From IMG/VR virus record IMGVR_UViG_3300046167_000591, positions 1 through 58,240 of that record: a stretch of 58,240 nucleotides of DNA. The stretch is one strand, 5' to 3'. The number at the start of each line of letters is the position of its first letter. Position 1 is the stretch's first letter. The notes beneath the pieces were generated by a model. That model saw nothing but the letters and a program-made list of their open reading frames with translations, searched no databases and was not told the origin of the DNA. Position numbers and translations under genes: made by a program. Shown here one piece after another: positions 671-35,257 of the stretch. The stretch comes from a virus (taxonomy: Duplodnaviria; Caudoviricetes).

Positions 671-1881
671 ATGGCGCAAATAACAGAAAATAACGAACAA
701 TATTATTCAGGTTCTCAAACGTTTTTTGATGCCAGTAGTGCAACAACAACGTTTCAAACTACATTTAATACCGATTTGGTATTTTATTCTCATGACCCTA
801 GCAATATAAATTATCCTTTAAATAATTTTAAACTTTATACTAGTCCAGATGGTCAAACATGGACCGAGTATACTTCTTCATTTAGTGTAACAACTAATAA
901 AATTACAACAGGATCATCAATTCCAGCCGGTACTTATGTAGCAGTACAATTAAAAAGATTAGATGGCGGCGAATACGCTGATCAAGAACGCGTTTGGAAA
1001 CACTACAGAGAACAATTATGGTAGTTATCAATACATACCATTAAAAGAAATTATAGACAACTTTATGGTCGCTTATGTGGGTGATGGTAAATTAATACAA
1101 ACAGTTAAAAAAACAGATATATTATTTCATGCTAAAAGAGGTTTACAAGAATTTAGCTATGATACTTTAAAAAGTATTAAAAGCCAAGAATTAAGTGTGC
1201 CTCATAACTTATCTGTAATATTACCTCAAGGATTATGTTAACTATGTGCGCTTATCATGGATTGATGATTTAGGTGTGCGTAGAATAATACAACCTACAA
1301 GACTCACTAAAAGACCATCTGAAGCGCCTATACAAAGCGGTAATGGTATTCCATTACAAGATAACTTTTCAAGCAACATTGAAGGTACTTCGCAAATAAA
1401 TGAAAGATGGGCTAATGCTGATACTAAAAAAATTACAGGACAGTTTTCATCTACTGAACTTGATAATGGCTACAATGTTTTAGGATTTGAAAGTGGTTAT
1501 TATTTAGATGCTTACGGTAAAAGATACGGATTAAATCCTGAAACAACACAAACAAATGGTTGGTTTGTAATAGATGAAACACAAGGCAAAGTTAGTTTTT
1601 CAAGTGATTTAGTTGATAAGCTAATATTGTTTGAATACATATCTGATGGACTTGCGTATGACCGAGATACAAAAGTACCTAAGCTAGCTGAAGAGGCATT
1701 GTATAAATATATATTGTATAACGTTATTTATACAAGAGCTAATCAACCAGAGTACTTAGTACAAAGATTAAAAAGAGACAAAAGTGCTGCTCTTAGAAAC
1801 ACTAAAATAAGATTATCAAATATTAAACTAGAAGAAATTAGCCAAGTATTTAGAAACAAGGCTAAATGGATAAAACACTAG
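671..1881 (+). CDS. Tail tubular/ring-type structural protein, split into 3 ORFs by apparent frameshifts (~985, ~1230)
   Basis: ORFs 671-1024, 963-1241 and 1246-1881 read as one protein (...FHAKRGLQEFSYDTLKSIKSQEL...EYISDGL...PKLAEEALY...KAKWIKH). Immediately upstream of the tail stabilisation gene. Confidence 0.65.
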
Positions 1882-1887
1882 AATTAA

Positions 1888-4800
1888 ATGGCTGAAATTA
1901 AAAATACATTTTTAAAGTCTAAGATGAATAAAGACTTAGACGATCGTATTGTACCTAATGGTGAATACAGAGATGCTGTTAATGTAACTATTAGTCAATC
2001 AGAAGCAGGTGATGTTGGTGCAGTTGAAAATGTTAGAGGTAATATTGAAAAGCTACAAATAGATACTGATATTAATTTTATAGGCTCTTTAGCTGATGAT
2101 GTAAACAACGTTATTTATATATTTGGCACTGATAATACTTCTGAAGACGCTGCAACAGGAACTTGTGGTATATATAGATACAATGCAACTGCTAATACCG
2201 TTGTGCCTTTAGTTAAAGGTATTTTTCTTAATTTTTCTACGCTTTATCCAATGCACGGTATAAACTTGTTAGAAAATTTATTATTTTTTACAGACAATAG
2301 AAATCAGCCAAGAGTAATAGATGTTGATAAAGCACTTGCTAATCCTGCAACAGATCCATCACCATATTATACAAAAGAAGAACATTTATCAGTAGCAAAG
2401 TATGCACCATATGAAGCAATTGATGTTTATTATCAAACTACAGGAACAGCTAATGGTGCTACATCAGGAACTGGTTTTAATTTTGGAATAGCTGGCACTA
2501 CAACAGATATTCAAGTAGGTGATTATTGTGTTAATACTTCAACAGGGATATTTTTAGGAATTGTAAATAGCGTTGTAGTAACAACTAACGCTTCTGTAAT
2601 AGTTGATAGAGATATTTCAGCAGTTTTACCAGTAAATGGTAATGAAATACAATTTACAAGAACCACTATGAGCGACCAGTCTGGTAATGCTTCATGGGGT
2701 GGTGATCCTGATTTTATTGAAGAAAAGTTTATAAGACTAAGCTATAGATTTAAGTATGAAGACAATACTTACTCTTTAATAGCACCATATACACAAACTT
2801 TATTTATTCCTAAGCAAAGAGGTTTTTTTGGCGAAGACGATGAAGAAACAACTTATCAATCAACCATAGTTTCTTTTATGGAAAACTTGATTAATAACAT
2901 TGAGCTTTATGTTCCGCTGCCCTCCTCAAATATATCTATTGATTATAAAATTAAAGAAGTTGAACTTATATATACTGAATCTGATTCTAATATTGCAAAC
3001 GTATTACAGTCGGTACCAGTAGCAACAGTTCAAGCTAATATAGAAACAACTTATAAGCCAGAAAAAAATTACTTTAAGTTTGTTTATCAATCTCAAAAAC
3101 CTTTTAAAACTTTAACAACTGCTGAAACAACAAGAGTTGCAGATAAAGTACCAGTAAAAGCATTAGCACAAGAAATAATTAGCAATAGAGTTGTTTATGG
3201 TAATTTTGTAGATAGAAGAAACTCCCCGCAGTTTTTAGATTATAATATAGCTGCTCAAGAAAGAGATTTAACTGGAAGCCCTTTAGCTGCATCATACCCA
3301 CAGCATAGTTTAAAACAAAATAGAAATTATCAAGTTGGCGTAGTATTATCCGATAAATATGGTAGAGCATCAGATGTAATTCTTTCTGAAGATATTACTG
3401 GTATATCTGAGTTTCCAGCTTCTACATTATTTCATCTCTATAAAGAAGAAAGTTGGGCACCAGGTGTTGCTGATTGGTTAGGCGATTCATTAAGAATAAT
3501 ATTTAATACTGTAGTGCCTAGTGATGATTTATATGCAATACCACAAACATTTACATTAGCCGCAGCCCAAACGGGTACAACAATAGTTGGTACTACATAT
3601 ACTATAGTAGGCTTAGATGTTACATCAACCGTTGAGGCTGGTGAATATTTAAGAGCAAAGCAAAGAGATTTTACAAAAGTTGTCAGCTCAACTTTGGTTG
3701 GAAGTGATACTGTAATTGTTACTGAAGAAGAAATATCTAGTGTTTATTTATACACAGGTGGTTATCCAGCAACTACACCTGAAGAGCCAAAGTATGTTTA
3801 TACATTAGATCAAACCGGTTGGTATAGTTATAAAATAGTTATAAAACAAACCGAGCAAGATTATTACAATGTTTATCTTCCTGGTATACTAAATGGAAAT
3901 CCTATAGCTCCACTCGAACTTAATAGAGTAGCTAACATTGTATTACATTCTGATAATATAAATAAAATACCAAGAGATTTATCTGAAGTAGGACCTGACC
4001 AAGATAAGTATAGATCAAGTAGTGTAAGAATATATGGTAGAGTAAATAATACAACTACCGCGTTTTCTCCCACATATAATCAACAACTTTATTTAGGTAG
4101 AATTGATAATTTTGTAACACAAATAGCAACAGAAACAGACTTTTTTGCATCAGAATTTGGAGCTAGTGGTTATACTCCATTTGCTGGTTTTTATAATGTA
4201 AATTCTAACCCATTATTGGCTAAAATAGATATTTTTGAAAATAATGCAGCTATGAATATTCCGCCAAATATACCTCCTAACGTTGGCGTAAATGAGGCTG
4301 CATATACCGGTGATACTAATACTTTACCTCAATTAGCTGTGTTTGAAACGGAAGCTACTGAATCTAGGTTAGATATATATTGGGAATCATCAACAACAGG
4401 TTTAATAGCTGATTTAAATGAATTAATAGCTCAAAGCTTTGATGGCGTTGCTGGTGTTTCTTCGTTTAATAGTGTTTTTAACGAATCTAATAATTATGAT
4501 GGTACACCAAGCGGTTTACCTATAACAACTTCATTTAATCCAGTAGATGGTGCTGGAACAGCTATGTCAAGTACAACAGCGACAATTGACAACATTGTAG
4601 ATGGTAATGGCACTTCTGTTGTCAACGATAATAGTATTTTTGAACTTGATTTAATAAGTACAGGTCCAGACGTTTATAAAATTAATTGTAAACAAGACTT
4701 TGCTTATTTAGAAAGCAGCAGTACTTCAGATGTTTATACTTTTACTTTAAAATTTGTAGTTGGAACAACAATTTCTTATCATGATATATCTGTTGAATTA

Positions 4801-5928
4801 TTAAATGATAACCCAAGTTTAGGGTCTTCATTAGCTGATCAAACAATATTTTTAGGTGATACTGAAATTAGTGATACAATACAACCTATTTTAAATGGTG
4901 CAGCAACAAATACAGATGCTCAGTTAGTATTAGAAATTGATAGCCAAACAATGTTATCACCGAGTGCGGGTTCTTCTACAACTGCATTTGGTACTTCATT
5001 AACGGATGAAGGAAGTTTTCAAAGCGGTAAAATTACAGTTGTTGACGAAAGCCAACTTACTGCTGGTGACATTTATAGTGTAACTTATAAAGCATCTGAC
5101 GCTAATAAAGCAACTGGATTTTTAACAGATTCAGATACAGTACAAATAACCATAGCTGATCCTGTAACTTCACTTTCTACGAATACAGGAACTAACCAGT
5201 GGATTTACAAAGGTGGATTTGTAGCAAGTACAGGTAGTATATATCAAAAACCTATTATACCTTGTTCAAGTACTTATCCAGGAAAGGTAGGACATAGAAT
5301 ACAAGTAAACAATATTTATTCAGAGCAATCGAATATTCCTGGTTTAGGTCAAACAGGAGCGTTTACTTTAGCTATGCAAATTGTAACTGCTACAGGTGGT
5401 AGTAATAATGATTGGTTTGATCCAACTAGTACTGGAAGATACAGTAGTAACGTTCCATTTGTTGATTGGTTTGAATTTGATAGTGACGATTGTACTAGTC
5501 TTAACGGTACAACTAAAACCACTTACAACTCTGGTTCAGACCCTACAAAAAGAGGTATATTACTAGATGCAACTGAAATAACTGCTGGACAAAATATTAC
5601 TGCTTATATGCTTTTTGAAGACATCTTATTAAACAAAAGAGGTGCTTGGGCATTTGGAACTAGTGGTGCTTATAGCTACTCAGAAGGGTATGTGTCTATT
5701 AAATTTGTACTTAAGCCTTATGATCCAGTAGGAACTTATATTACTGATAGATGGGATGAAACTGATGGCTATCTTATAGCTAGCGGTACTTTGGATTTTG
5801 TTGGTTATCCTGAAAACGAAGATACTAATCCTTCGCCTACTACAGTATATGCTGGTTTAAATGACCCTAGTACAGTCATTGGAGTGGCTTGTGCTAGTGG
5901 AACTGGTAATCCTGGTACATCATGTTAA
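1888..5928 (+). CDS. Tail stabilisation/nozzle protein (P22 gp10-like, crAss-type) with a T/S/G-rich C-terminal extension
   Basis: N-terminus KMNKDLDDRIVPNGEYRDAVN...GDVGAVEN and LLFFTDNRNQPR, SLKQNRNYQVGVVLSDKYGR resemble crAss-like stabilisation proteins. 1346 aa. Confidence 0.75.
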   Translation: MAEIKNTFLKSKMNKDLDDRIVPNGEYRDAVNVTISQSEAGDVGAVENVRGNIEKLQIDTDINFIGSLADDVNNVIYIFGTDNTSEDAATGTCGIYRYNATANTVVPLVKGIFLNFSTLYPMHGINLLENLLFFTDNRNQPRVIDVDKALANPATDPSPYYTKEEHLSVAKYAPYEAIDVYYQTTGTANGATSGTGFNFGIAGTTTDIQVGDYCVNTSTGIFLGIVNSVVVTTNASVIVDRDISAVLPVNGNEIQFTRTTMSDQSGNASWGGDPDFIEEKFIRLSYRFKYEDNTYSLIAPYTQTLFIPKQRGFFGEDDEETTYQSTIVSFMENLINNIELYVPLPSSNISIDYKIKEVELIYTESDSNIANVLQSVPVATVQANIETTYKPEKNYFKFVYQSQKPFKTLTTAETTRVADKVPVKALAQEIISNRVVYGNFVDRRNSPQFLDYNIAAQERDLTGSPLAASYPQHSLKQNRNYQVGVVLSDKYGRASDVILSEDITGISEFPASTLFHLYKEESWAPGVADWLGDSLRIIFNTVVPSDDLYAIPQTFTLAAAQTGTTIVGTTYTIVGLDVTSTVEAGEYLRAKQRDFTKVVSSTLVGSDTVIVTEEEISSVYLYTGGYPATTPEEPKYVYTLDQTGWYSYKIVIKQTEQDYYNVYLPGILNGNPIAPLELNRVANIVLHSDNINKIPRDLSEVGPDQDKYRSSSVRIYGRVNNTTTAFSPTYNQQLYLGRIDNFVTQIATETDFFASEFGASGYTPFAGFYNVNSNPLLAKIDIFENNAAMNIPPNIPPNVGVNEAAYTGDTNTLPQLAVFETEATESRLDIYWESSTTGLIADLNELIAQSFDGVAGVSSFNSVFNESNNYDGTPSGLPITTSFNPVDGAGTAMSSTTATIDNIVDGNGTSVVNDNSIFELDLISTGPDVYKINCKQDFAYLESSSTSDVYTFTLKFVVGTTISYHDISVELLNDNPSLGSSLADQTIFLGDTEISDTIQPILNGAATNTDAQLVLEIDSQTMLSPSAGSSTTAFGTSLTDEGSFQSGKITVVDESQLTAGDIYSVTYKASDANKATGFLTDSDTVQITIADPVTSLSTNTGTNQWIYKGGFVASTGSIYQKPIIPCSSTYPGKVGHRIQVNNIYSEQSNIPGLGQTGAFTLAMQIVTATGGSNNDWFDPTSTGRYSSNVPFVDWFEFDSDDCTSLNGTTKTTYNSGSDPTKRGILLDATEITAGQNITAYMLFEDILLNKRGAWAFGTSGAYSYSEGYVSIKFVLKPYDPVGTYITDRWDETDGYLIASGTLDFVGYPENEDTNPSPTTVYAGLNDPSTVIGVACASGTGNPGTSC

Positions 5929-5935
5929 TATTAAT

Positions 5936-5958
5936 AAAAACACGTAATATTTAATAAT
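5936..5958 (+). promoter_or_regulatory. Putative late promoter (AAACACGTAA motif)
   Basis: AAAAACACGTAATATTTAATAAT directly upstream of ATG 5960. The same core occurs at 40681, 43313 and 58052. Confidence 0.6.
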
Positions 5959-5959
5959 T

Positions 5960-7355
5960 ATGGCGTCATTAGAAATAGCATTTTATAACACATATATACT
6001 TAAAAAGTTAACGGACAGCAGTAGTGCTAATACAAGTCCAGAATGGGCTGGTGGTAATCCTTCAAATACGCCTGACCCTGCTAATGATTCTGAATGGTGG
6101 TATTTAGAAGAAGCAAGAATACGTGGTGGATTTAACAATACTATTACTGACTTAGGTAAAAAAGCATATATAGTTGAAGAAGATGATGAATCACAGCAAA
6201 GAACAAATGCGTTAATATATTCAGGTATATATAATTCTAGAACAGGTTTTAATGGCACTAATGTGTTTTCTGTGGCTGAAAATATAACTAAAAGCGTTGA
6301 CCCTGCTTATGGTAGTATACAAAAACTATATGCTGAAGATACTAATTTAACAATATTTCAAGAAGAAAAAGTTAGTAGAGCATTAATAGACAAAGACGCA
6401 ATATACTCTGCTGAAGGTGGTGGAACAGTAACTTCAACAAACTTAGTTATTGGACAAATAGTACCTTACGCTGGTAACTACGGTATAAGCACTAACCCTG
6501 AGTCTTTTGCTGTTTATGGCTATAGAAAATACTTTACAGATAAAAGAAACAACGCGGTATTACGTTTATCAGCTGATGGTATTACAGAAATATCATCTTA
6601 TGGTATGAAAGATTGGTTTAGAGATAATTTAGAAGATAAAACTAAACTTGAAGGTGCTTGGGATATTTACAAAAAGAAGTATGTTATTTCTTTACAAGGT
6701 GATGAATCATATACACTTACTTTTGATGAAAGTATTAAAGGCTGGGTAAGTTTTTATACATACTACCCAGAAGATATGGTTAGCTTGCGTAATAATTTTT
6801 ACAGTTTAAAAGATAATAAATTATGGCAACATAATTCAGAGCTTGTTGAAAGAGGTAATTTTTATAACAACGGCGTTACAAAAAGTAGCATACAGTTTAC
6901 AATGAATGCGCAACCGTCTCTTGTTAAAAACTTTAAAACTATAAACTTTCGAAGGTACGAGTAACTGGAACATGGATAGCTTTGTTACTGATTATGAAAA
7001 TGCTAAGTCAGATGATATAGATTAGCTTGATAGACGGCGCGTATTTTCAAGCAGGTATTCAACAACCATTTCAGTGCTGGTTTTGATCAGAAAAGAAAAT
7101 AAATACTTTGCATACTTAATAGCTAACGATACATGTATCTCAGACTCCTAATATATCATGCTGGGAAGCCGTTACCATTAGACGGTGTAGGAATAACGCT
7201 GGATGCAAATGGCAACGCATCAAAAAGTCAGGAGCTTAAAGGTTTTTACTCCACTGTTACATTGTCTAGTGGCGATACAGATAAACAGGTGACTTTTCAA
7301 CCATGAGAATTATTTGCTGTTTCGCGCTGAGTATAACGTGGGCTCTTCGTATTAA
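5960..7355 (+). CDS. Tail protein (second part of the nozzle/stabilisation module); 3' end damaged by indels
   Basis: ORF 5960-6964 (YGSIQKLYAEDTNL, YGISTNPESFAVYG, YFTDKRNNAVLRLS, GWVSFY). Broken coding continuation (KNFKTIN-EG, KENKYFA, KGFYSTVT, ELFAV...SSY*) to ~7355. Confidence 0.65.
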
Positions 7356-10396: not shown

Positions 10397-13300
10397 ATGG
10401 CAACTGATGTAAATTTATTCTTAGATAACATTTTTGGCGGTGATAACGACAAAAAGAAAGAAGAAGAAAAAAAGAAAAAAGAAGAACAAGCAAAGAAAAA
10501 AGACTCTGCAATGAGAGGTGTGGTTGCGGAGTCAACTGCAACTGCTGCACCTCAAATAAAAGATACGGCTTTACCTTCGGACGATGGTTTATCGGACTCA
10601 CAATCAGCTAAAAAACTTCTAGACGACTTATTTGCTGATTTAGACAAACCGGTTGAGCCTGCTGTAGAATACAAACCTATAGAAACTCAAAAAGCCCCAG
10701 CAATTGCTACTGTTAATTTAGAAAAACAATTAGCAGGAACTGGTTTTACAGTTAAAACAAAACAAGGGCTTAGAGGACAAACTGTAGAAATAACTTCACC
10801 TACAGGTAATACAAAAGATTTTCTTACACAAGACTATACTGTTTCGGCTACAGCGTTTGGCCCAGGGGCATCATACACTAATGACATTGAAGAAATGAAT
10901 TCATTTGTTAATAGTGAAATGCTTACAAAAAGCGCTAATGACTCAAGAAAACAAGAAGAAGACGATTTAAAACAAAACATTACCGAATACCTTGAAAAAG
11001 CAAAAGATTCAGGTGATATAATTAATTATGATTACTTTTTGCCAGAAATGTATGGCGGATCTGCAACAGCTTTAAGTCAAGAAAATTATGGTAATGTAAC
11101 ATTTGATAGCGTTTTAAAAGATTTTAAAAATTCTGAAGAGTATAAAAATTCTCAGTATGTCAATGAATTTAAGTTAGAAGATTTATTTATAACGCAAACT
11201 AAAACATTAGCTAATATAGATAAACAAGAGTTAAATACAGAACTTTTAGTAAGACAAGCCAACGCAGTTAAATTAACAGATGATCAGTTATTAGCAAACA
11301 AAGAAAAAGAATTACAAGGCACTAGAAATACTTTAGATAGAGAATATGTAGACTTAGTAGTTGAAATAGAAAGCTTAAAAGGTAAAACTGATCCTGAAAG
11401 TTTACAAAAACTTGAACAGCTACAAGAAAGACAAAAAAATCTTGTAGAAAACGAAGTAAAAATTCCATCATTTTTTGATTTATTTAAAGTAAACCCAGCA
11501 ACAGCTGGTTCAACTTATTTAGCAGCTTTATATACAAAAGCAACAAGTAAAGTAGGTGAAGAAGCTAAAATGTTATATGACTTAGATGGTAATTTACTTA
11601 TTGATACTAACCAAGATGCGGTAAGTACTTCCGATGCTGGTGTATCTGCTTCAAAATATGCTGGTAGCGATCAAGATTTTATTACTAATGAATATAACCG
11701 CAATTTAGTAAATTGGGGTAAAAGTGATATATTAGGAAGTGAAAAAATTAATGTACGTATTAATCAAGAATATGTACCATTTGCTTTTAACAAATATAAA
11801 GAAGAAGAGTTAGGAGTTTATAGCGTTCCTTTAAAAGAATTAGCTAAATACAGAAATAAACTTTTTTTAGGAGATAAAAATTTATTTGAAGTAATTCAAG
11901 ACCTTACTTCAGCTAAGCAAAGATTTGAAAACGAGGGTATAATACCTGAAGGTGAATTTGTATCTAACGAAGAAGAGTTATTTCAACTTGTAGATACTTA
12001 TGCTAGACAAAGAAAAGAAATAATATCTGATGCAACTGCATTAGAATCCATGCGTTATGGTTTTGATCCTGCTACTTTAGGTGATGATTCTTTAAACTTC
12101 ACTATGGATGTTACTAAAGAAGTTGTAGATAACTTTAAAAATTCTTTTGTTAAGACAGAAGATTTAGATAAGCCAATTACAACTACTATTCAAGTAAAGC
12201 AACAGTTAGCTGAAACAATACCCAATGATTTACAAGAATTAGGTATATCTGAAGAATATATTAAAACATTGAAACCAAGTTTAGCAGTAGGGGCTTTACA
12301 AGGTGTTGCTGGAATGTCTGAAGATTTAGTTGAGTTTGCATTATTTGATATAGCGGCAACCGCAGGCGAAGGCGCTATAGTCAAACTAGCTAGTAAAATG
12401 CCAAAAATAACAGCTGCATTAAAAGGCTCAAAACTTGTTTATAATGATAAGTTTAAAAATACCGCAAAAACAGCTTACGTTTTAGCAAAAGAAGAAGTTA
12501 AAATGAAAACTGTATTTGATGAAAACTATCACATGGGTGGTGGTGTTGCATTTGCTGGTATGGGTATGTTATCAAAAAAATACTTTCCGCTTAACTTTGG
12601 AGCAAATAGATTAAACACTTTAATGGGTGTACCAAAAGAAGGTGTAATATTTGCAACATCTTCTGAATTAGCTAAATTTACAGAAGGTGGTATTTCTTCA
12701 ATGGCTGGTGGTAAAACTTTTAAAAGACATTTAGATGAAAATTATTCTGACTTTGACGAAGTATCACGTGAATATTTAGGTAACATAATGTTTGGTAGTT
12801 TACTTAATATTAAAGGATTAAGTACAACAGCAGTAAAACGACTTTATAAAGGTGAAGCTCAATATGAATGGATGTCAACCAAGGCTATTGATAAACTAAA
12901 CAATACAGCTACAAAAAATATAAAATCGATTTCTGCTGAAATAAACGAAAGAGCAGAATTAGGAGATAAAGCAGAAGATTTAAAATCTCTTGAAGATAAT
13001 TTAATTAAAAACTGGAATGTATGGAATACAACCAGGTTTATACAAACAAACTTAAGAGATTTACAAGATTTAAGAAGCGGTGATGTAGAAAAAGTTACAA
13101 AATGGTATAAAAAATATCAAAAAGAAAATGTAGAAACATTAAGAAAAGTGTCTGGTAACGATGCTGCTCAAATTATTTATTCTACTGATGCTACTAGATT
13201 TCAACCAGGTGAGCAAGCTAAATATACATCAGATGGTAATATTGAGCTAAACATAAAAGCTATTGCCAATAAGAAAGAAGCTGCTGATCCAAATCTTGTA

Positions 13301-16300
13301 TCGCATGAAATGACGCATGCAATAACAGAAAGAATAAGTAAAAACAATCCTTTATTTTTAAAGAACTTTTACAACAAGTTAGAATCAGAGTTTCCTGAAT
13401 TAATTGCAGATATTAAAGAACAATATAAAGAAGAAATTGGAAAAGATCCTTCAATACTTGAAAAAGAGTTTATTTCTTTTGTTGCTCAAAGATTAGGTAA
13501 TAAAGAATTCTATAACAACTTTAGTGTTGTTTCTGAAGGTGAAACTACATTTTTCCAAAAAATAGCTAATTGGACAAAAAACTTTAATAAAGAAAATGTA
13601 GGATTCGACCCATCAATTGCATCTAAAAAAGATTTAGTTAAGTTTTGGGCTAATTTAAGTATAAAGCTAAATAAAAATACTTTAACCGCTTCTGACTTAA
13701 AAAAGCTTGAGCAATTAGGTTTATCTGAAGCATACGAAGTACCGGTTGAATCTAACGCTGAATCAAAAGATTTTAAAGCAAAAGATTTAGGTACTGATTT
13801 AGAACAAGCAAGAGACTTATTAGAAGTATATAGAGGTATAAAAGCAGCTGATACACCATTAGCAAAAAGAGCAATGGAAATTAGAGCTACTAATCCCGCT
13901 GTTGCTGAAAAAATGCTTGCTGACTCAAAAGATAAAGCTTTTGGTGAGTTAATAGTATCATTTGAACCAATGGTTAATAAAGAAGCTGGTCGTATTAATA
14001 CACAGTATGGTATTAGCAGAGAAGAAGCTGTTGCAGAAGTTCAAATAAACGCTATAGACTTAATTAATACATACAAGCCTTACTTAGCTATCATTGAAAA
14101 TGGAAAGTCTGTTAGCATCGCTGAAAAGGGTGTTAAAATGAAAAACATTATAGAAAGAGTTAATGCTGGTGAAATTTCATTTGATTTAAATAAACCAAAC
14201 CCTGTTGACCTTGCTGGTTATATTAGCAGAAACTTACCACTTAGAACAAATGCAATATACGCAAAGTATACAGAAGCAAACAAAGGCGGTGAGCTATTTA
14301 AAACAACTAGCATTGACGAAATACGTGAATTATCCGCTGATGATATTGCTGGATATGCTGGTGGCTCTGCTATGGAATCTACCGCCAAAGCTAATACAAG
14401 ATTGATTGAAGCTGTTGATGCACTTATTCCAGATGCTGTTAAAAGAAGCAATTACAATCAAGGTGTTATTGATTTAATGACTGAAGAAAACATTACAGAC
14501 TTTGGTTATCCTGCTGTAAAAGGAACTAATCCAGAAGCTATTATGGACGCTATGTCTGGTGGCAATCTTGTTGTTAAACCTAATGGCAAAATTAATAAAG
14601 CAAAAACTTTTGCAAACATTAGAGAATGGCTACGTAAAGATAACAATGCTAGTTTAATATATAAGTACTTTCCGCTTGGTGCTAAAAAACAAGCCGAAGG
14701 TTTAAAATCTGCTACTAAAGTAGCTAAGTCTATACTTAATAATTTTTATGAAAAAGGTGAAAGAGCTACTATGCTTGAAGGAACTGCCGCTGGTTTATCA
14801 GTACAAGAAAAAGTACCTTTTGATAGAAATAACTTTTTAGAAAAAGTAGGAGCTATAGGCAGCAAAGACAGAAACAAAGATACTTTACTTGAAGCAATAA
14901 TAAATGAAGTTGATAGATCAACAACAAATAGAGTTGTTAGAAAAGAACTTGAAATACAAGGTAAAGAAGATAAGCTATTACAAGAATTAGCAGATGGTAA
15001 GTCTGAAGATTTATTAGTAAAAGAACTTGACCCTGAATTTGAAAATTTAAGAATTCAATTAGCTGCTAACTTAGCTGTTGATAATATTGTCCTCAAAGCT
15101 TTTGATGAAGTTCTTGTAGATGCTAAAATGGACGACGCTATATTTAAAAAGTTTGCAAGTTTAAAAGGTGAAGAAAAAACAGCAGCTCAAGAAAAATATT
15201 TAAATGAGTTTGCAAAGCCTTTTGTAGCGCTTATGCCTAATGAATTTAAACAAGTATTAACTTCTCCTGGCGGAAAAGTACTAAATTCATTTATGGAAAA
15301 GTATTTATTGTATGGCAATAAAAGTAGAGGAGCCGGAGATTTAGGTACAAAAGGCGGACCTGGTTTTCAAAAGCAATTAAGAAATTTTTATGAAGATGCT
15401 AAAAAAGATACACAATTTCAAGAGCTTATTGACCCAAAAAGCAAAACTTACGATGTTGAGGTAGCCGAAGCTTGGAATGCTATCAAAGATAATTTAGAAG
15501 CATTTGAAGCAACTACAAGTACTCAAATAAATAAATATAACTTTGCTGGTGGAAAAGTTTTTGAAATAGCTGGTAAATCTAAAAATCCTGTTAAAGCTGG
15601 AAAAGAAATTGTAGCAGAACTTGATAGAATATATGGTGAAGGCAAAGGTGTTAAAACTTATGAAAAGTTAGGTAAGCTTACTCAAGATGTAGACTTTTTT
15701 ATGCAGCTTATGTTGAAAAAATGGTATGAAAGTGTGCCAGAAGGAGAATTAAAAGAAAAAGCTAAAGAAAACTTGTATTTATTAAAAACAGGCACTACAA
15801 ATGTATTAGAATCAGATAGAATTTTTGCACCATTAAGATATATTCAAGTTGGTGTTAAAAAAGCTTATTTAGAACATATAGTTTCATCTTTAGAAATATC
15901 TACAGCCAACTATATGGACATAATAAACGGTACTTTTAGCAAAGAATCTTTTGATGGTACCAGAAGCCTTTATTATACCGCTGCAATTAAACCGTCTAGT
16001 GCTAAATTGTTGGATAAAGTTTGGGGCAGTACTACAAATATAGCCTTGCATAGATTTTTTGCTGATCCTGAGTTAGCTAAAAATACTATAGACTTATATG
16101 CTCCTACAAAAAATAATACCCAGTTTAAAACTGTAGAAGAAAATTTAAATGCAATATACGGTAAACCGTTTGTAGAAAAACAATTTACTATAGCTAAAGA
16201 AGCAAAGTCATTGTATGAAAAGTCTATGGATTTGTCTTCAAAAGATTTAAGCAAAGACCCTATAAGTGATTTAGAATCTATAGCTCGTATGTCAAATGTA

Positions 16301-18784
16301 GATGTTGCTCATGATTTAGCAAGAATCAGAAACAAGAAAAATAAAGGTATTAGTGTTTTTGATTTTGATGATACACTTGCTAGAAGTAAATCTAATGTAT
16401 TATATACAATGCCTGATGGTAGAAAAGGGAAACTTAATGCAGAAGAGTTTGCTAAAAGAGGTGATGAACTATTAGCTCAAGGTGCTGTTTATGATTTTTC
16501 TGAATTTAAAAAAGTAATGCAAGGATCAAAAGGACCTTTGTTTGAGTTAGCTAAACAACGTGGTGAAAAGTTTACAACTAAAGATGTATTTGTATTAACA
16601 GCTAGGCCACCTGAAAGTGCGGTAGCAATACAAAAGTTTTTAAAAGAATCTGGTTTAGATATTCCTTTAGAAAATATTACAGGTTTAGGAAACTCTTCAG
16701 CACAAGCTAAAGCAGACTGGGTTGTAAATAAAGCTGCTGAAGGTTATAATGATTTTTACTTTGCTGATGATGCTATTAAAAATGTTAAGGCTGTTAAAGA
16801 TGCTTTAAGTGTTTTAGATGTTAAGTCCGATGTACAACAAGCATTTGCTGCTAAAGATTTAAACAAAGAGTTTAATAAATTAGTTGCATCAAAACTAGGT
16901 ATTGCTCCAAGTAAAAATATAAGTAAAGCTAGAGCTGAAATGTTGGGTAAAAAGAAAAAAGGCACCTGGTTTATTCCTTATTCCAATGAAGACTTTATGG
17001 GATTAATGTACCCTTTATTTGGCAAAGGCAAAAAAGGTGATGCTGATGTAGAATTTCTTAAAGATGCTTTAGTAAGACCTTTTGAAAGAGGTGAATATAA
17101 TATTTCAAAAGAAAGAGCCACGCTAGCTAGAGACATGTCAGCATTAAAAGATCAAACAAAAAAGTTAAACCCAGGCACAACTAAAAAACTAAAAAATACA
17201 GTTGACGAAGCTTTTACTGCAGAGCATGCTGTTAGAGTTTATATATGGGGTAGACAAGGTATGGAAGTACCTGGCCTTAATAAAAAAGATATACGTAAAT
17301 TAACAAACTACGTTAAAGCAGATAAAGATTTAGTTGAATATGCTGAAAACTTAATGTTATTAGGTAAAAGCAGCAAATACCCTGAGCCAACTAAGTATTG
17401 GGCCGGCGGCAATATATCAAATGACTTTAGAAACAGTTTATTAACTACAAGAAGAAAATATCATTTAGCTGAGTGGATTCAAAATAAAAATGAAATATTC
17501 ACGCCAGAAATGTATAATAAACTTGAAGCAACTTTTGGTAAAGGATATGTTGAAGCTTTAAAAGAATCTTTAGCTGCAATGGAAAGAGGTAAAAATAGAC
17601 TGCCTAGTAAAAATAAACAGTTTGATAAGTATTTAGATTTTGTTAATGGATCTGTTGGTGCTGTAATGTTTTTAAATACTAAATCCGCAGTGTTACAAAC
17701 ATTGTCAACATTAAACTATTTAAACTGGACAGATAACAATCCAGCTGCGGCTGCTAAACAATTTGCAAACATACCAAAGTTTTCAAAAACGTTTATGGAA
17801 TTATTCAATTCTGAATATTTAGTTAATAGACGTGATGGTTTAAAAATCAATGTAAGTGAAGCTGAACTTAACGATGTTTTTAAAGATAGAAATAAAGTTG
17901 AAGCATTTTTTAACTTAATGATTAGAAAAGGTTTTGCTCCCACAAGGTATGCTGATTCTTTTGCAATTGCATTAGGTGGTTCTAGTTTTTATTTAAATAG
18001 AATAGAAACTTATAAAAAGAATGGTTTATCTGAAGCTGAAGCTAAAAAAGAAGCATTTGTAGACTTTATGGAAACATCAGAACAAAGTCAGCAGTCTTCA
18101 AGAACAGATAAAATTAGTCAAGAGCAAAGAGGGCATTTAGGACGTCTTATTTTGTCTTTCGCTAATACACCAATACAATATAATAGATTAATGAAAAAAG
18201 CTATTATGGACATTAGAAATGGTCGTGGCGATGTTAAAACAAATGTTTCTAAAATATTGTATTACGGCGCTGCTCAAAATATTATATTTTCTACTTTGCA
18301 GTCAGCTTTATTTAGTATGTTTTTTGATCCAGATATGGACGAAGACGATAAAATGGAAAAATATGTAAAAGTTGTAAATAGCACTTCTGATTCTTTCTTA
18401 CGTGGTTTAGGTGTTGCTGGCGCTACTGCGGCAATGCTTAAAAATGTTGGAATCAAAATATACCAAGAGCATCAAAAAACAAGACCAGAATATGATAAAG
18501 CAGCTTTAGAAGTACTAAGTATTTCGCCGCCTTTAGATTCTAAGATCACTAAGTTAATGCAGGCTGGTAAAATATTCATGTATGAAAAAGATGCAATACA
18601 AGAAGAAGGGTGGTCATTAAATAACCCTGCTTGGCAAGCTGGTGCAAAAGTATTTGCGGCTGGTACTAACGTAGGTGTTGACAGGTTTTTTATTTTTAAA
18701 GAACAATATGAAAACCTTACGGATGATAATCTAGCAATGTGGAAAAGAATATCGCTGCTGGTGGTTGGCAGAATTACGAATTAG
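10397..18784 (+). CDS. Giant putative ejection/polyvalent protein: zincin (HEMTH), sigma-like segment, HAD domain, helical C-terminus
   Basis: 2795 aa. HEMTH at 13304-13318. FDFDDTL...VLTAR...YFADD HAD motifs at 16358-16770. The true end is probably ~18906 after a terminal frameshift. Confidence 0.75.
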   Translation: MATDVNLFLDNIFGGDNDKKKEEEKKKKEEQAKKKDSAMRGVVAESTATAAPQIKDTALPSDDGLSDSQSAKKLLDDLFADLDKPVEPAVEYKPIETQKAPAIATVNLEKQLAGTGFTVKTKQGLRGQTVEITSPTGNTKDFLTQDYTVSATAFGPGASYTNDIEEMNSFVNSEMLTKSANDSRKQEEDDLKQNITEYLEKAKDSGDIINYDYFLPEMYGGSATALSQENYGNVTFDSVLKDFKNSEEYKNSQYVNEFKLEDLFITQTKTLANIDKQELNTELLVRQANAVKLTDDQLLANKEKELQGTRNTLDREYVDLVVEIESLKGKTDPESLQKLEQLQERQKNLVENEVKIPSFFDLFKVNPATAGSTYLAALYTKATSKVGEEAKMLYDLDGNLLIDTNQDAVSTSDAGVSASKYAGSDQDFITNEYNRNLVNWGKSDILGSEKINVRINQEYVPFAFNKYKEEELGVYSVPLKELAKYRNKLFLGDKNLFEVIQDLTSAKQRFENEGIIPEGEFVSNEEELFQLVDTYARQRKEIISDATALESMRYGFDPATLGDDSLNFTMDVTKEVVDNFKNSFVKTEDLDKPITTTIQVKQQLAETIPNDLQELGISEEYIKTLKPSLAVGALQGVAGMSEDLVEFALFDIAATAGEGAIVKLASKMPKITAALKGSKLVYNDKFKNTAKTAYVLAKEEVKMKTVFDENYHMGGGVAFAGMGMLSKKYFPLNFGANRLNTLMGVPKEGVIFATSSELAKFTEGGISSMAGGKTFKRHLDENYSDFDEVSREYLGNIMFGSLLNIKGLSTTAVKRLYKGEAQYEWMSTKAIDKLNNTATKNIKSISAEINERAELGDKAEDLKSLEDNLIKNWNVWNTTRFIQTNLRDLQDLRSGDVEKVTKWYKKYQKENVETLRKVSGNDAAQIIYSTDATRFQPGEQAKYTSDGNIELNIKAIANKKEAADPNLVSHEMTHAITERISKNNPLFLKNFYNKLESEFPELIADIKEQYKEEIGKDPSILEKEFISFVAQRLGNKEFYNNFSVVSEGETTFFQKIANWTKNFNKENVGFDPSIASKKDLVKFWANLSIKLNKNTLTASDLKKLEQLGLSEAYEVPVESNAESKDFKAKDLGTDLEQARDLLEVYRGIKAADTPLAKRAMEIRATNPAVAEKMLADSKDKAFGELIVSFEPMVNKEAGRINTQYGISREEAVAEVQINAIDLINTYKPYLAIIENGKSVSIAEKGVKMKNIIERVNAGEISFDLNKPNPVDLAGYISRNLPLRTNAIYAKYTEANKGGELFKTTSIDEIRELSADDIAGYAGGSAMESTAKANTRLIEAVDALIPDAVKRSNYNQGVIDLMTEENITDFGYPAVKGTNPEAIMDAMSGGNLVVKPNGKINKAKTFANIREWLRKDNNASLIYKYFPLGAKKQAEGLKSATKVAKSILNNFYEKGERATMLEGTAAGLSVQEKVPFDRNNFLEKVGAIGSKDRNKDTLLEAIINEVDRSTTNRVVRKELEIQGKEDKLLQELADGKSEDLLVKELDPEFENLRIQLAANLAVDNIVLKAFDEVLVDAKMDDAIFKKFASLKGEEKTAAQEKYLNEFAKPFVALMPNEFKQVLTSPGGKVLNSFMEKYLLYGNKSRGAGDLGTKGGPGFQKQLRNFYEDAKKDTQFQELIDPKSKTYDVEVAEAWNAIKDNLEAFEATTSTQINKYNFAGGKVFEIAGKSKNPVKAGKEIVAELDRIYGEGKGVKTYEKLGKLTQDVDFFMQLMLKKWYESVPEGELKEKAKENLYLLKTGTTNVLESDRIFAPLRYIQVGVKKAYLEHIVSSLEISTANYMDIINGTFSKESFDGTRSLYYTAAIKPSSAKLLDKVWGSTTNIALHRFFADPELAKNTIDLYAPTKNNTQFKTVEENLNAIYGKPFVEKQFTIAKEAKSLYEKSMDLSSKDLSKDPISDLESIARMSNVDVAHDLARIRNKKNKGISVFDFDDTLARSKSNVLYTMPDGRKGKLNAEEFAKRGDELLAQGAVYDFSEFKKVMQGSKGPLFELAKQRGEKFTTKDVFVLTARPPESAVAIQKFLKESGLDIPLENITGLGNSSAQAKADWVVNKAAEGYNDFYFADDAIKNVKAVKDALSVLDVKSDVQQAFAAKDLNKEFNKLVASKLGIAPSKNISKARAEMLGKKKKGTWFIPYSNEDFMGLMYPLFGKGKKGDADVEFLKDALVRPFERGEYNISKERATLARDMSALKDQTKKLNPGTTKKLKNTVDEAFTAEHAVRVYIWGRQGMEVPGLNKKDIRKLTNYVKADKDLVEYAENLMLLGKSSKYPEPTKYWAGGNISNDFRNSLLTTRRKYHLAEWIQNKNEIFTPEMYNKLEATFGKGYVEALKESLAAMERGKNRLPSKNKQFDKYLDFVNGSVGAVMFLNTKSAVLQTLSTLNYLNWTDNNPAAAAKQFANIPKFSKTFMELFNSEYLVNRRDGLKINVSEAELNDVFKDRNKVEAFFNLMIRKGFAPTRYADSFAIALGGSSFYLNRIETYKKNGLSEAEAKKEAFVDFMETSEQSQQSSRTDKISQEQRGHLGRLILSFANTPIQYNRLMKKAIMDIRNGRGDVKTNVSKILYYGAAQNIIFSTLQSALFSMFFDPDMDEDDKMEKYVKVVNSTSDSFLRGLGVAGATAAMLKNVGIKIYQEHQKTRPEYDKAALEVLSISPPLDSKITKLMQAGKIFMYEKDAIQEEGWSLNNPAWQAGAKVFAAGTNVGVDRFFIFKEQYENLTDDNLAMWKRISLLVVGRITN

Positions 18785-19944: not shown

Positions 19945-20427
19945 ATGAATGTACCTAAATTTATTATAAGTGAACATATTACACTTAATGAAGCTGTTCA
20001 TTCTAATACCGCAAAAAGAAAAGGTATAGATAATACGCCAAACCCTGAAGCTGTATTAGCTATGAGTAAACTAGCTGAAAACGTGTTTGAGCCACTTAGA
20101 GCACATGTAGGTGGACCAATAAAAGTTAATAGTATGTTTCGCTCAGAAGAATTAAATAAAGCGATAGGGGGCTCTAAAACAAGTCAACACTGTAAAGGCG
20201 AAGCAATTGATATTGATGACATTTACGGTCATGCTACCAATGCTGAAATGTTTATGTTTATATGGGACAACTTAGATTTTGACCAACTTATATGGGAATT
20301 TGGTACTGATGAAAATCCATCATGGGTACACGTAAGTTACGTTTCACCTGAAGAAAATCGTAAACGTGTATTAAAAGCTGATAAAATAAATGGCAAAACA
20401 GTTTATAGTGTAATGCCAAAAGAATAG
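19945..20427 (+). CDS. Endolysin, peptidase M15A family
   Basis: SMFRSEELNKAIGGSKTSQHCKGEAIDI...WVHVSY Zn-peptidase motifs. Confidence 0.88.
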   Translation: MNVPKFIISEHITLNEAVHSNTAKRKGIDNTPNPEAVLAMSKLAENVFEPLRAHVGGPIKVNSMFRSEELNKAIGGSKTSQHCKGEAIDIDDIYGHATNAEMFMFIWDNLDFDQLIWEFGTDENPSWVHVSYVSPEENRKRVLKADKINGKTVYSVMPKE

Positions 20428-29660: not shown

Positions 29661-30422
29661 TTAGAAATAATCTAAAACTTCAGCTGGATTTACATTATCA
29701 ATTAATTTTTGAACTGCTTGCTTTTTAATTTCAGATACTCTAACGTAGGCGCTAGCTCCTTGAATATCTAATCTTTCAGCAATAGCATTTGCACCGTGCT
29801 TATCGCAATCCAGTCCATAACTTAATCGTAATACTTCATACTCTCTGTAGTCTAAGTATTTCTTTAACAACCCCATGAGATACTTATTTAATATCCCAAT
29901 ATTATAGTTCTCAGATTTATCTTCAATCTGGTACATTGGTGAATCAAAGTCGTCTTCATCACCAATCCTTTCATCTATACTTAAGAACATAGAATTAAAA
30001 AACAAGCGCACCAGCTTTTTATCTTTGCCAGCATCTTTTCTTATTTGTAATAGCTTATGCTCTGGTATTTTAATATTACCCCTATTAATGTCAATAGCAC
30101 GTCTTATCGAGCCCTTAATTCTTTTTGATAGGAAACTCTTAATTGTTTTTTCAACGTCATCAGATCGATTTATTTCAGTCCATATAATTTTATCAACCGC
30201 TCTAACCAATCCAACATTACCTTCTTGTATTAGATCGTTAATACTTAATACCCCAGACGCTTGTTCACTAGTTGCAAACTTTCTTGCAATGTTTTCTACA
30301 AGTGGCATAAACTTTATTATAAGTTCATCTCTAGTATATTCTTGCCATTCATTATCTGCAGGCATACAGGTCTTAAGATCATCTTTATATCTTAGGTAAT
30401 TTTTAACATTATACTTTTTCAT
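29661..30422 (-). CDS. Phage RNA polymerase sigma70-family factor
   Basis: Region 2 LIIKFMPLVENIARKF...DLIQEGNVGLVRAVDK...RIKGSIRRAI, then LSID, and region 4 REYEVLRLSYGL...IAERL...VSEIKKQAVQKL. Confidence 0.9.
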   Translation of the reverse strand: MKKYNVKNYLRYKDDLKTCMPADNEWQEYTRDELIIKFMPLVENIARKFATSEQASGVLSINDLIQEGNVGLVRAVDKIIWTEINRSDDVEKTIKSFLSKRIKGSIRRAIDINRGNIKIPEHKLLQIRKDAGKDKKLVRLFFNSMFLSIDERIGDEDDFDSPMYQIEDKSENYNIGILNKYLMGLLKKYLDYREYEVLRLSYGLDCDKHGANAIAERLDIQGASAYVRVSEIKKQAVQKLIDNVNPAEVLDYF

Positions 30423-32554: not shown

Positions 32555-32570
32555 TGTATTTGTTTTATAT

Positions 32571-32602
32571 TAATATCAATTTTAATTCGTATTAAGTTTG
32601 TA
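32571..32602 (-). promoter_or_regulatory. Early promoter-like motif, copy 1 of 11
   Basis: Sense consensus TACAAAYTAAATACGA-N7-TTGATATTA. Upstream of ATG 32554. Confidence 0.75.
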
Positions 32603-33043
32603 TTTTTTTATATTTTGTTGATCAAGCCAATATATTAATGCGTCTACTTCAACATATAAACGCTTTTCAAATATAAACACAAGACCATCAAAGCCATCTA
32701 GGTTTTCACCGTTATGTGTATGCCAGAACGGAAATTTACGTGGATCATACTTAATAGATACATAGTTGCCGTTTAAAAATTCATTTTCACTGTGCATTAG
32801 ATATTGATCGTTAGCACATGCTAAACCGTTAGTACTTGCAATCCAAGCACATACAGTTTTATTTTCACCGCTGTGTATTTTTTCAGCAACCTTACGATTG
32901 TTGTGTAGCTTACCTCTAATTATACCGTAGAAGTTTTCAGTAGGAAAGTATGTAACTGTTTTACCGTCAGCTTTACGATATTGCCACTTCATATAGTTTT
33001 CACCTCTAGCTAAGTGAAATCGTAGTTTGTGTTTAGTACTCAT
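32582..33043 (-). CDS. Hypothetical early protein
   Basis: 153-aa ORF (RFHLARGENYMKWQ...KTVCAWI). Confidence 0.75.
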   Translation of the reverse strand: MSTKHKLRFHLARGENYMKWQYRKADGKTVTYFPTENFYGIIRGKLHNNRKVAEKIHSGENKTVCAWIASTNGLACANDQYLMHSENEFLNGNYVSIKYDPRKFPFWHTHNGENLDGFDGLVFIFEKRLYVEVDALIYWLDQQNIKKYKLNTN

Positions 33044-33275
33044 CGTTGTGTATGTTTATTAATTCGTTTTCTAATTGTGTTACCATGTGGTTAGATAGTA
33101 GCTCGTATATACATTGAGCATCATTACCTACCGCTATCTTATGTATTTCAGCTATATCAGGTGAACCGGCATAATCATATGTTTGATCTTCGCCTTGCTC
33201 GAAATAGTATTGCACATTAAGTACAACACCATAAAACATTATTTCTCTCTCAAACTCGTTAGTATTTGTTGCCAT
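33033..33275 (-). CDS. Hypothetical acidic early protein
   Basis: 80-aa ORF. Confidence 0.7.
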   Translation of the reverse strand: MATNTNEFEREIMFYGVVLNVQYYFEQGEDQTYDYAGSPDIAEIHKIAVGNDAQCIYELLSNHMVTQLENELINIHNDEY

Positions 33276-33381
33276 CTGTTTTTTCTTTTTAATTCTGCAG
33301 CAGACTTTCTTGCTGACAGAGTGTTTTTATTTTCTATTTTATATCCTGTTATAGGATTTATACCGTGGTCCCAAAAGTTTT

Positions 33382-33651
33382 TTACCATCTTCCTTTGTTT
33401 TTCTTTTTTATTTTATTAATTATTTTAAGTGATTCAAATATATGTGGATCAAACATTTTTACTTCATCGTTTATATCGTAGTCATCATGTATAGGAAAGT
33501 TATAATAAAACTTAAATAGCTCTTCTATTTTTATAATGTTTTCTTGGTATAAGTGATCGTCAATCATACCTTCTTCCCATAAACCGTTATTAAGTCGAAG
33601 CCTGTCTAACAGTCTTACAAACTCGTTTTTAAAGTATACGTAGTCGTTCAT
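33382..33651 (-). CDS. Hypothetical early protein
   Basis: 89-aa ORF. Confidence 0.65.
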   Translation of the reverse strand: MNDYVYFKNEFVRLLDRLRLNNGLWEEGMIDDHLYQENIIKIEELFKFYYNFPIHDDYDINDEVKMFDPHIFESLKIINKIKKKNKGRW

Positions 33652-33653
33652 AA

Positions 33654-34259
33654 TTAATGAATAACTAGTCCGACGCGGTGATTATCGCTAAACCACTTTG
33701 TTGCATAAAGATCTGTCTTTGAAGCATTTACGTAGTTTGAATTTTGCAAATCTTCGAGGGAGCTGAATATTTTTGTATGACGGTGTATAGCATGGTCGAT
33801 TAAGTCGACTTGCTTACCACTATCGCTAAAAATAATATCGTAGTTGTCAGGAAGATCAGCATTAAGTAATAACTGAATAGAGTTGGTGTAACTGTAAAAC
33901 CGTACATTTGGATTGCTTTTAGCTATCTCGAGCCACTTTTTTAGATATGCTTTACTGTAATAGTCTCCGCTATCATGAACTCGAACATAGTTGGGTTTAG
34001 CTTTTTTAATTTCAGCATTCATTGCATCTATAAACTGATCTGTCTTACTTAGCTCATATCGCTTTTCAAATGCAGGTTTTACATTACCCCATATATAAGC
34101 ACCTTTACGTGCATAACAAAACTTGACACACTTATCAGCAAAGGGACATGTTAGTTTACCCGATGCGCTTTTATAAGCTGGTATGCCAAAGTTCATTACT
34201 TTAACACCAAGGGCTTTGCTAGTATTTTTTAATTTAGAGTTTTGTGTTAATAGTTTCAT
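33654..34259 (-). CDS. GP88-family Cys-motif (radical-SAM-like) protein
   Basis: LLTQNSKLK, TCPFADKCVKFCYA, VRVHDSGDYYS, FYSYT. Confidence 0.75.
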   Translation of the reverse strand: MKLLTQNSKLKNTSKALGVKVMNFGIPAYKSASGKLTCPFADKCVKFCYARKGAYIWGNVKPAFEKRYELSKTDQFIDAMNAEIKKAKPNYVRVHDSGDYYSKAYLKKWLEIAKSNPNVRFYSYTNSIQLLLNADLPDNYDIIFSDSGKQVDLIDHAIHRHTKIFSSLEDLQNSNYVNASKTDLYATKWFSDNHRVGLVIH

Positions 34260-34282
34260 AATATAATTATTTAATTCAGTTA

Positions 34283-34314
34283 TAATATCAATATACTTTC
34301 GTATTTAATTCGTA
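34283..34314 (-). promoter_or_regulatory. Early promoter-like motif, copy 2
   Basis: + strand TAATATCAATATACTTTCGTATTTAATTCGTA. Confidence 0.75.
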
Positions 34315-34449
34315 TTATCCAATACCAAAGTATTTAAGTTCTATATACTCAGATTCTTCTTGCAAACCTAAGTCTTGCATCATAGCCCAAACCCCATCGG
34401 GGTCTGAGATTTCTATGAGCTGATCTATCATTTCAGGTGTGTACTTCAT
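34315..34449 (-). CDS. Small acidic protein (44 aa)
   Basis: Hand-translated MKYTPEMIDQLIEISDPDGVWAMMQDLGLQEESEYIELKYFGIG*. Confidence 0.65.
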   Translation of the reverse strand: MKYTPEMIDQLIEISDPDGVWAMMQDLGLQEESEYIELKYFGIG

Positions 34450-34473
34450 TACTTATATGCTTCAGCTTCATCT

Positions 34474-35228: not shown

Positions 35229-35257
35229 AATATTTAATTTAATTTGTTATACATTTA

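Follow-up and report, generated by a model that had tools for sequence, protein, structure and literature searches.

The window analysed here is the entire IMG/VR virus record IMGVR_UViG_3300046167_000591, a phage genome of 58,240 bases with an estimated completeness of 91%. The structural block of this genome ends with a giant open reading frame, P0001 (10397–18784, plus strand; 2795 amino acids, no internal stop), and residues ~1176–1298 of its product are, very probably, a real homologue of the sigma-2 domain of sigma factors. Four partly independent lines of evidence support this assignment, as the corresponding segment of a relative passes the Pfam Sigma70_r2 model, a profile of the domain finds sigma factors among PDB sequences, and both a structural search and a co-fold with the RNA polymerase beta' subunit agree. 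The larger proposal, in which the giant protein delivers an RNA polymerase-capturing sigma domain that starts early transcription, is a plausible chain of steps to which we give slightly less than even weight.

Sigma-2 likeness of residues 1176–1298

The initial annotation, made from the letters of the sequence, had described a 2795-residue protein with a HExxH motif (HEMTH, nucleotide 13304), followed at nucleotides 13937–14320 by a segment with the pattern of sigma70 region 2. All of these elements were recovered in the reading frame at 10397–18784 on the plus strand, where HEMTH starts at residue 970, AFGELIVSFEPMV at residue 1181 (nucleotide 13937), FDLNKPNPVDLAGY at residue 1262 and TTSIDE at residue 1303 (nucleotides 14303–14320). 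Profiles, the fold search and the co-fold uphold a sigma-2-like reading of residues ~1176–1298 (nucleotides 13922–14290, plus strand), a domain of three long helices with an insertion. They do not extend that reading to a complete sigma factor, no sigma-4 having been detected.

A profile built from 47 relatives without the window copy matched the window segment with an expectation value (E) of 1e-16 (47.7 bits). The resulting leave-one-out alignment gives the register read in the initial annotation, with AFGELIV.. as the 2.1-like, ..AVAEVQINAIDLINTYKP as the 2.2-like and LAGYISRNLPLR as the 2.3/2.4-like element, and it requires a 38-residue insertion at residues ~1229–1267. This insertion (38–39 residues; nucleotides 14081–14197, plus strand), which appears as a gap in the alignment, is missing from most relatives. 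Because a jackhmmer alignment instead placed the 2.1-like helix at AIDLINTYKPYLAII, the region-2 register of the window copy is not fully settled. One relative, L075, matched the same profile of 47 relatives with E 2e-19 and also passes the Pfam Sigma70_r2 model, the match spanning model positions 1–67 of 71 at 25.2 bits (cut-off 24).

Searching a library of 177635 PDB sequences with the domain profile (A6, 48 sequences) yielded 23 sequences at E ≤ 10. Eleven of them were sigma factors, all aligning on region 2: FliA twice (E 0.011), the SigE N-domain (E 0.052), sigma-K, three RpoS, WhiG, SigA1, SigA and one more. With a profile of the whole conserved module (A3), the top PDB match was SigB (8x6g_H, E 0.0051); the next six entries were NELF-C/D sequences (E 0.12–1). 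Alignment by hhalign to the family of the phage's own free-standing sigma factor (16 members) gave E 0.0031 with a probability of 10% for the sub-domain, and E 0.016 with a probability of 2.9% for the whole module, while BLASTP against the phage's own sigma factor (E 0.079) aligned ELIVSFEPMV.. to sigma residues 33–65, in region 2.1–2.2. Marginal singly, these sequence comparisons together point to one family and one register.

In the 2.3/2.4-like columns, which we take to match the corresponding residues of sigma-70, the family carries an aromatic residue in 91 of 96 sequences (Y in 52, F in 25 and W in 14) and arginine or lysine in 75 of 98; these columns do not preserve the tryptophan pair of region 2.3. 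The "region-3.2-like SID" of the initial annotation corresponds to a short acidic motif that is conserved in the family, reading F-T-x-[DS]-[IV]-x-E by column counts and LFKTTSIDE in the window.

AlphaFold2 and Foldseek had been named as a check in the initial annotation. AlphaFold2, run on residues 1160–1560, predicted a sigma-2-like helical fold, and sigma-2 domains head the structural search. The model, computed from 55 sequences (mean predicted local distance difference test score, pLDDT, 75.6; predicted template modelling score 0.57), contains three long helices at residues ~1180–1204, 1208–1233 and 1272–1296 with pLDDT values of 80–92, which would form the helical core of regions 2.1–2.4 that characterises a sigma-2 domain. 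The insertion between helices two and three is poorly predicted, with pLDDT values of 44–53 in blocks of model residues 77–110. The helical part is followed by an acidic linker that is predicted to be disordered (about residue 1298 onwards in the model and annotated here as residues 1299–1338; nucleotides 14291–14410, plus strand; pLDDT below 50 over model residues 139–175). Beyond it lies domain B, a confidently predicted alpha/beta domain of unknown function (residues 1339–1559; nucleotides 14411–15073, plus strand; pLDDT ~90), in which four short helices, a small sheet and a long helix follow one another in the model. Foldseek against BFVD returned one significant match (E 2.9e-6), to a piece of a large protein from an uncultured virus named "UDP-N-acetylglucosamine kinase", which we guess to be a family member.

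Co-folding of the sub-domain (A6) with residues 1–360 of RPOC_FLAJ1, the Flavobacterium johnsoniae beta' subunit used as a stand-in for that of the host, scored 0.64 as the median of three runs, whereas the best of three controls scored 0.10; in the calibration of the method, 58 of 80 solved complexes and 2 of 110 mismatched pairs reach the mark that this pair passes. At least 63% of the contacts are common to the runs, and the partner pLDDT is at least 72. Confident contacts join beta' residues 272–319, which we take to be the clamp helices on the basis of E. coli numbering (~262–309), to residues 1209–1224 of the second long helix, the helix equated with region 2.2 by the alignments. Further contacts with beta' involve residues 1179–1186 and residues 1301–1309, in the conserved LFKTTSIDE stretch. 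The modelled interface looks like the canonical region-2.2 interface. Co-folding with RpoC had also been put forward in the initial annotation, and in the model the region-2.2-like helix docks as it would lead one to expect; the pass suggests a domain that is sigma-like on its core-binding face, which is a likeness and not proof of binding.

Several results weigh against the sigma-2 assignment. Each single sequence E-value to a sigma factor is weak (0.003–0.08), and L075 is the only one of 55 family members to reach the Sigma70_r2 cut-off. The window's own protein gave no sigma match in Pfam (searched in pieces, E ≤ 10), NCBIfam, PHROGs or PDB sequences; a six-frame search of the genome with PF04542 found the free-standing sigma factor alone and did not match the giant protein; and phmmer with residues 1130–1560 against 1.84 billion proteins returned 26 relatives and no sigma factor, the first 85 residues being uncovered. 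The window copy has K and V-N-A where the family shares D and G-K-R with sigma region 2.2, and its 38-residue insertion is predicted with low confidence. For the whole 401-residue model, Foldseek found nothing in the PDB at E < 0.4, and sigma-H entries stood at ranks 6 and 30 without significance. The co-fold pairs a textbook complex with a stand-in host, and its pass may stem from likeness to solved holoenzymes. At the level of sequence, no sigma-4 or other reader of a promoter -35 element was detected, Sigma70_r4 matching none of 55 family members.

Domain B, which follows the linker, showed weak HTH_Tnp_Tc3_2 matches at its start in 4 of 55 members. It has no match among PDB sequences, and in an hhalign comparison (E 0.27) it did not resemble the C-terminal half of the phage sigma factor.

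Family, domain order and place in the structural block

At E ≤ 0.001, 512 relatives of the giant protein were found among 7987 scored candidates, and a protein of 2835 residues is 96% identical to it. The best 120 of these 512 are 1649–3384 residues long and come from marine metagenomes. Each of two collections holds more than 560 confirmed family loci, and 160 loci were collected via the C-terminal domain for the sub-segment profiles. Searching 50,697 GenBank phage records by tblastn with the giant protein and with its C-terminal domain yielded no relative, only one weak HAD match.

An iterated profile delimits residues ~1178–1550 as one conserved module, the N-terminal edge of which coincides with the segment singled out in the initial annotation. 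Profile counts were made on 306 family proteins (the largest reading frames of the loci plus database proteins, duplicates kept), 275 of them full-length. The sigma-2-like sub-domain was found in 187 of the 306 and in 177 of the 275, domain B in 123 of the 306, and the two together in 99. A second profile round added 44 of the 98 full-length negatives, bringing the sigma-2-like domain to at least 221 of 275, all from uncultured marine phages with kinship to podoviruses of Flavobacteriia; the 54 full-length relatives that have no significant match after two rounds count against the proposed role of the domain. In 162 of 177 proteins the domain lies downstream of HExxH, at a median distance of 182 residues, and these profile matches show a fixed order of zincin, then sigma-2, across the family.

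In 13 of 55 aligned members (L088, L097, L113, L123, L087, L020, L108, L157, L009, L156, L155, L152 and L032), the linker is followed by sequence that, judged by eye, is unlike domain B (..LRKKLNIE..VKTFGTKLP..). The sigma-2-like domain thus appears to be paired with at least two different downstream partners and, since other sequence takes the place of domain B in these 13 members, seems to be the constant element beside the zincin.

The remainder of the giant protein is a succession of unrelated parts. Its N-terminal ~900 residues are poorly conserved. The zincin-like metallopeptidase core (residues 944–982; nucleotides 13226–13342, plus strand) contains HEMTH at nucleotides 13304–13318, the sole HExxH of the protein, in which the glutamate and both histidines each show a conservation of 90% or more (alignment A2); its Pfam matches to SprT-like (E 0.15) and Peptidase_M4 (E 0.084) are weak, both falling below cut-off. 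A HAD-type phosphatase domain (residues 1978–2143; nucleotides 16328–16825, plus strand) is marked by a DxDxT motif (FDFDDT, residue 1988, nucleotide 16358) and a later DD motif, and has a weak Pfam HAD match as well as a match to PHROG 415, "polynucleotide kinase" (E 0.001), on the phosphatase part of that profile. The C-terminal domain (residues ~2150–2795; nucleotides 16844–18781, plus strand) is the best-conserved part of the family, with 44–51% identity and many invariant columns in A2; it was aligned in all 118 relatives listed and had no PDB or GenBank-phage match. In BLAST comparisons with the 118 relatives, residues ~1950–2795, comprising the HAD and C-terminal domains, align well in every one, and the middle of the protein in 3–18 of them. 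The whole-family profile matched just weak beta-lactamase entries in the PDB (E ~0.008), in the N-terminal part.

Three relatives, P0038, P0044 and P0063, also carry Zeta_toxin/AAA_33 P-loop kinase domains according to Pfam. Some family members may thus bring a Pnk-like kinase-phosphatase into the cell, perhaps to repair nucleic-acid ends.

Judged by its terminase, the phage is closest to the uncultured podovirus MW202828.1 (62.9% at the amino acid level), with 44% similarity to Flavobacterium Elemoviruses and 36–38% to the Cellulophaga phages phi13:2, phi18:3, phi46:3 and phi38:1, and a Tenacibaculum phage is also among its kin. This kinship makes a host among the Flavobacteriia likely. The structural block lies on the plus strand, with terminase, portal and PHROG "virion structural proteins" at 49840–58053 and continuing at 1246–6964. 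Elemovirus, MW202828.1 and Cellulophaga phage phi13:2 have colinear structural genes, and in each of these phages the block ends with a giant gene: Elemovirus gp18 (L164, NC_055854.1 48851–59935; 3694 residues, annotated "structural protein", HExxH present), the terminal gene of MW202828.1 (L163, 741–12320; 3859 residues, HExxH present) and phi13:2 gp127 (L165, NC_021803.1 66393–72365; 1990 residues, annotated "virion structural protein"). Because P0001, the final gene of its own block, holds the place of these virion-annotated giant genes, its product is probably packed in the virion, a reading drawn from synteny alone. Two observations count against it: P0001 has no detectable sequence similarity to the three giant proteins at the same block-end position, and profiles of the sigma-2-like domain and of the module found no match in the giant proteins of Elemovirus (gp18) and MW202828.1. 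The terminal giant gene is hypervariable in this phage group, the syntenic genes of 1990–3859 residues sharing almost no sequence; the sole match seen among them is a 150-residue stretch between MW202828.1 and Elemovirus.

The giant protein is a multidomain "polyvalent" protein, probably packed in the capsid and expelled into the cell with the DNA. Polyvalent proteins, as the main text of Iyer et al. (2017, PMC5512222) presents them, combine a zincin hub with several unrelated domains, a composition that the giant protein shares, and it gave no match to the Pfam models specific to polyvalent proteins. The same main text proposes that processing by the zincin takes place inside the capsid or once the polyvalent protein has been injected, and it describes the virion RNA polymerases of N4-like phages as always fused to such zincins; the word "sigma" does not occur in it.

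Early motifs and the proposed role of the domain

The initial annotation had linked the sigma-like segment to 11 non-host early motifs. Eleven highly conserved, strand-specific copies of a ~46-nucleotide motif (TACAAAyTAAATACGA-N6-8-wTyGATATTAw), which are candidate phage-specific promoters, are present at 32557–40172 on the minus strand; the core ACGA-N6-8-TyGATATTA occurs 11 times on that strand (32590–40160) and not once on the plus strand. Every copy is located directly upstream of a small minus-strand reading frame, and within the motif a TGnTATTAw stretch looks like an extended -10 element. A Bacteroidota promoter consensus (TTG-N17-21-TAnnTTTG) is not enriched in the genome, with 12 matches against 7.6 ± 3.2 in shuffled sequence. 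That the sigma-like domain reads these motifs and confers specificity for them is doubtful in our estimation. Co-variation of motif and domain lends it no support: none of the 10 near-complete relatives examined, five bearing the domain and five negative for it in the first profile round, contains the exact core, so that the comparison speaks neither for nor against the link.

Downstream of the final motif copy and on the same strand lies the gene for the free-standing phage sigma factor (29661–30422, minus strand; 253 residues), which has both sigma-2 and sigma-4 by Pfam and NCBIfam. It matches Sigma70_r2 with E 4.4e-6 (26.8 bits; cut-off 24) and TIGR02937 with 48.3 bits against 42.9 over residues 31–239, and it contains the LSIDE that the initial annotation had reported. 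At least 8000 close homologues exist. Among the near-complete relatives, 8 of 10 have one, the domain-bearing and first-round domain-negative groups (4 of 5 in each) not being separated by this trait. Given the position of its gene behind the last copy on the same strand, this sigma factor could itself depend on the motif promoters.

An RNA polymerase motif, which the initial annotation had failed to find in this genome, did not emerge from regular-expression, Pfam, NCBIfam or PDB-sequence searches either. Expressions for DxDxD-type and single-subunit RNA polymerase motifs found one unrelated DPDMD, and neither the giant protein nor its family profile matched an RNA polymerase in Pfam, NCBIfam or PDB sequences. 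No cryptic polymerase fold was found, the fold prediction spanning residues 1160–1560 only. A need for an early reader is suggested by the eleven strand-specific motifs, the Bacteroidota consensus that is not enriched, the searches that found no RNA polymerase and the sigma gene behind the motifs. The motifs fit the idea of an injected sigma domain and do not prove it.

In the chain of events that we propose, the giant protein would enter the cell together with the genome. The sigma domain, as encoded, is internal to the 2795-residue reading frame rather than a free, dissociable subunit, and the zincin may release the sigma module. The region-2.2-like helix (residues 1209–1224) would dock on the presumed beta' clamp helices as sigma factors do, according to the co-fold, and the sigma-2 domain would capture host core RNA polymerase at the incoming DNA. 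Transcription would then begin at early genes, the likeliest being those behind the 11 conserved, non-host-like motifs, before any phage protein has been made, and the free-standing phage sigma factor would take over later gene classes.

The strongest competitor to this chain, unlikely as we consider it, is that the sigma-2 domain binds host RNA polymerase without promoter specificity. It might act as a decoy, displacing the host sigma factor and shutting off host transcription at entry, or as a tether between RNA polymerase and the leading DNA end, with transcription then helping to pull the genome in. Such a role would suit a protein in which sigma-2 is present with no sigma-4 detected and in whose family the region 2.3 tryptophan pair is not conserved, and a co-fold that supports only the core-binding face of the model; the phage moreover has a complete sigma factor of its own, as do 8 of 10 relatives. 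It sits less well with the aromatic (91 of 96) and basic residues retained at the region 2.3/2.4-like positions and with the example of T4 gp55, which functions with a sigma-2-like part only, and it would leave a reader of the 11 motifs still to be supplied at time zero. A mere sharing of helical arrangement, with the domain having no RNA polymerase function and serving the zincin or the ejection machinery as a structural or regulatory appendage, strikes us as improbable: the four tests, different in kind, all lead to one family and one register, the 23 matches from the library of 177635 sequences include 11 sigma factors, and L075 passes the Pfam cut-off over nearly the full model.

Two further explanations concern the protein as a whole. 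It would be quite improbable, in our judgement, for the giant protein to remain unpackaged and be made late, acting in the producing cell as, for example, a late transcription or assembly factor; its lack of sequence likeness to the giant proteins annotated as virion components in cultured relatives would be in keeping with this, whereas the gene ends the structural block in the place of virion-annotated giant genes, and the main text of PMC5512222 gives polyvalent proteins just such a composition, a zincin joined to several unrelated enzyme-like domains. Least credible of all, to the point of being far-fetched, is a cryptic RNA polymerase elsewhere in the 2795 residues with the sigma-like domain as its accessory. 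N4-like and crAss-like phages do carry giant virion RNA polymerases, and about 2400 residues lie outside the region of predicted fold, but no motif was found by regular expression and no match in Pfam, NCBIfam or PDB sequences for either the protein or the family profile.

The reading of P0001 as the carrier of a delivered sigma-2 domain can be extended to the family, as a tentative picture: a large and abundant family of uncultured marine podophages of Flavobacteriia would eject a giant protein whose sigma-2 domain, freed by the adjacent zincin, would serve as a subunit for promoter specificity or RNA polymerase capture and direct host core RNA polymerase to phage-specific early promoters ahead of all phage gene expression.

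Other features of the genome and relation to known systems

The gene next after the giant reading frame encodes an endolysin (19945–20427). The minus-strand genes include, besides the free-standing sigma factor, those for ribonucleotide reductase, thymidylate synthase, MazG, a primase-helicase and ERF. The portal is split into two overlapping plus-strand reading frames (52051–53748 and 53672–54475), which match PHROG 6547 over profile positions 3–576 and 586–824 of 827; in relatives it is one gene of ~2.4 kb, and a frameshift, a sequencing error or programmed recoding could explain the split. A phage GroEL (43363–44916, plus strand; PHROG 5725, E 1e-132) and a GroES-like co-chaperonin (49012–49620, plus strand) are encoded, as they likewise are in MW202828.1 and Cellulophaga phage phi13:2. 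The reading frames directly preceding GroEL contain five direct repeats of ~47 nucleotides (41646–42963, plus strand; one copy at 9575), which encode a G-x-N-x-x-A-x-G-type repeat with weak PHROG matches of unknown function. Three direct repeats of ~41 nucleotides, rich in AACGTAA units, lie at 40249–40576, where the minus-strand gene block gives way to the plus-strand block.

Among known systems, the sigma-70 family (Pfam Sigma70_r2, PF04542; SigE, FliA, SigB, sigma-K) has the same sigma-2 domain that is embedded here in 2795 residues, but the window copy scores below every sigma model, carries a 38-residue insertion and comes with no sigma-4 detected. The nearest working model would be offered by T4 gp55 and minimal phage sigma-like factors, which consist of sigma-2 only, bind the clamp helices and read a -10-like element. 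T4 gp55 is a small free protein that is made after infection and needs co-activators. The virion RNA polymerases of N4-like and crAss-like phages (e.g., phi14:2 gp66) and the polyvalent proteins are likewise giant, fused to a zincin, encoded among or beside the structural genes and presumed to be delivered with the DNA, either to set off early transcription or to oppose host defences. In P0001, by contrast, no polymerase domain was found, and the element related to transcription is a sigma domain, which would work with the RNA polymerase of the host.

Phages are known to obtain their first transcripts either from promoters read by the host holoenzyme or through an injected complete RNA polymerase, as in N4-like, crAss-like and phiKZ-like phages. 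If the proposed chain is true, P0001 would be the first case of a sigma factor carried in the virion and would add a third way of solving this "first transcript" problem, an intermediate and much cheaper strategy in which the phage brings the specificity subunit only and uses the catalytic core of the host. No description of a virion-borne sigma factor was found in full-text literature searches, subscription journals and supplements lying outside their scope, and a virion-borne sigma domain would be new if packaging and RNA polymerase binding are confirmed. The family is large, with 512 relatives and more than 560 loci per collection. If it is real, the mechanism would thus be of consequence for a common group of marine Flavobacteriia phages, and some of the giant virion proteins so far classed as "hypothetical" receive a concrete function that can be tested.

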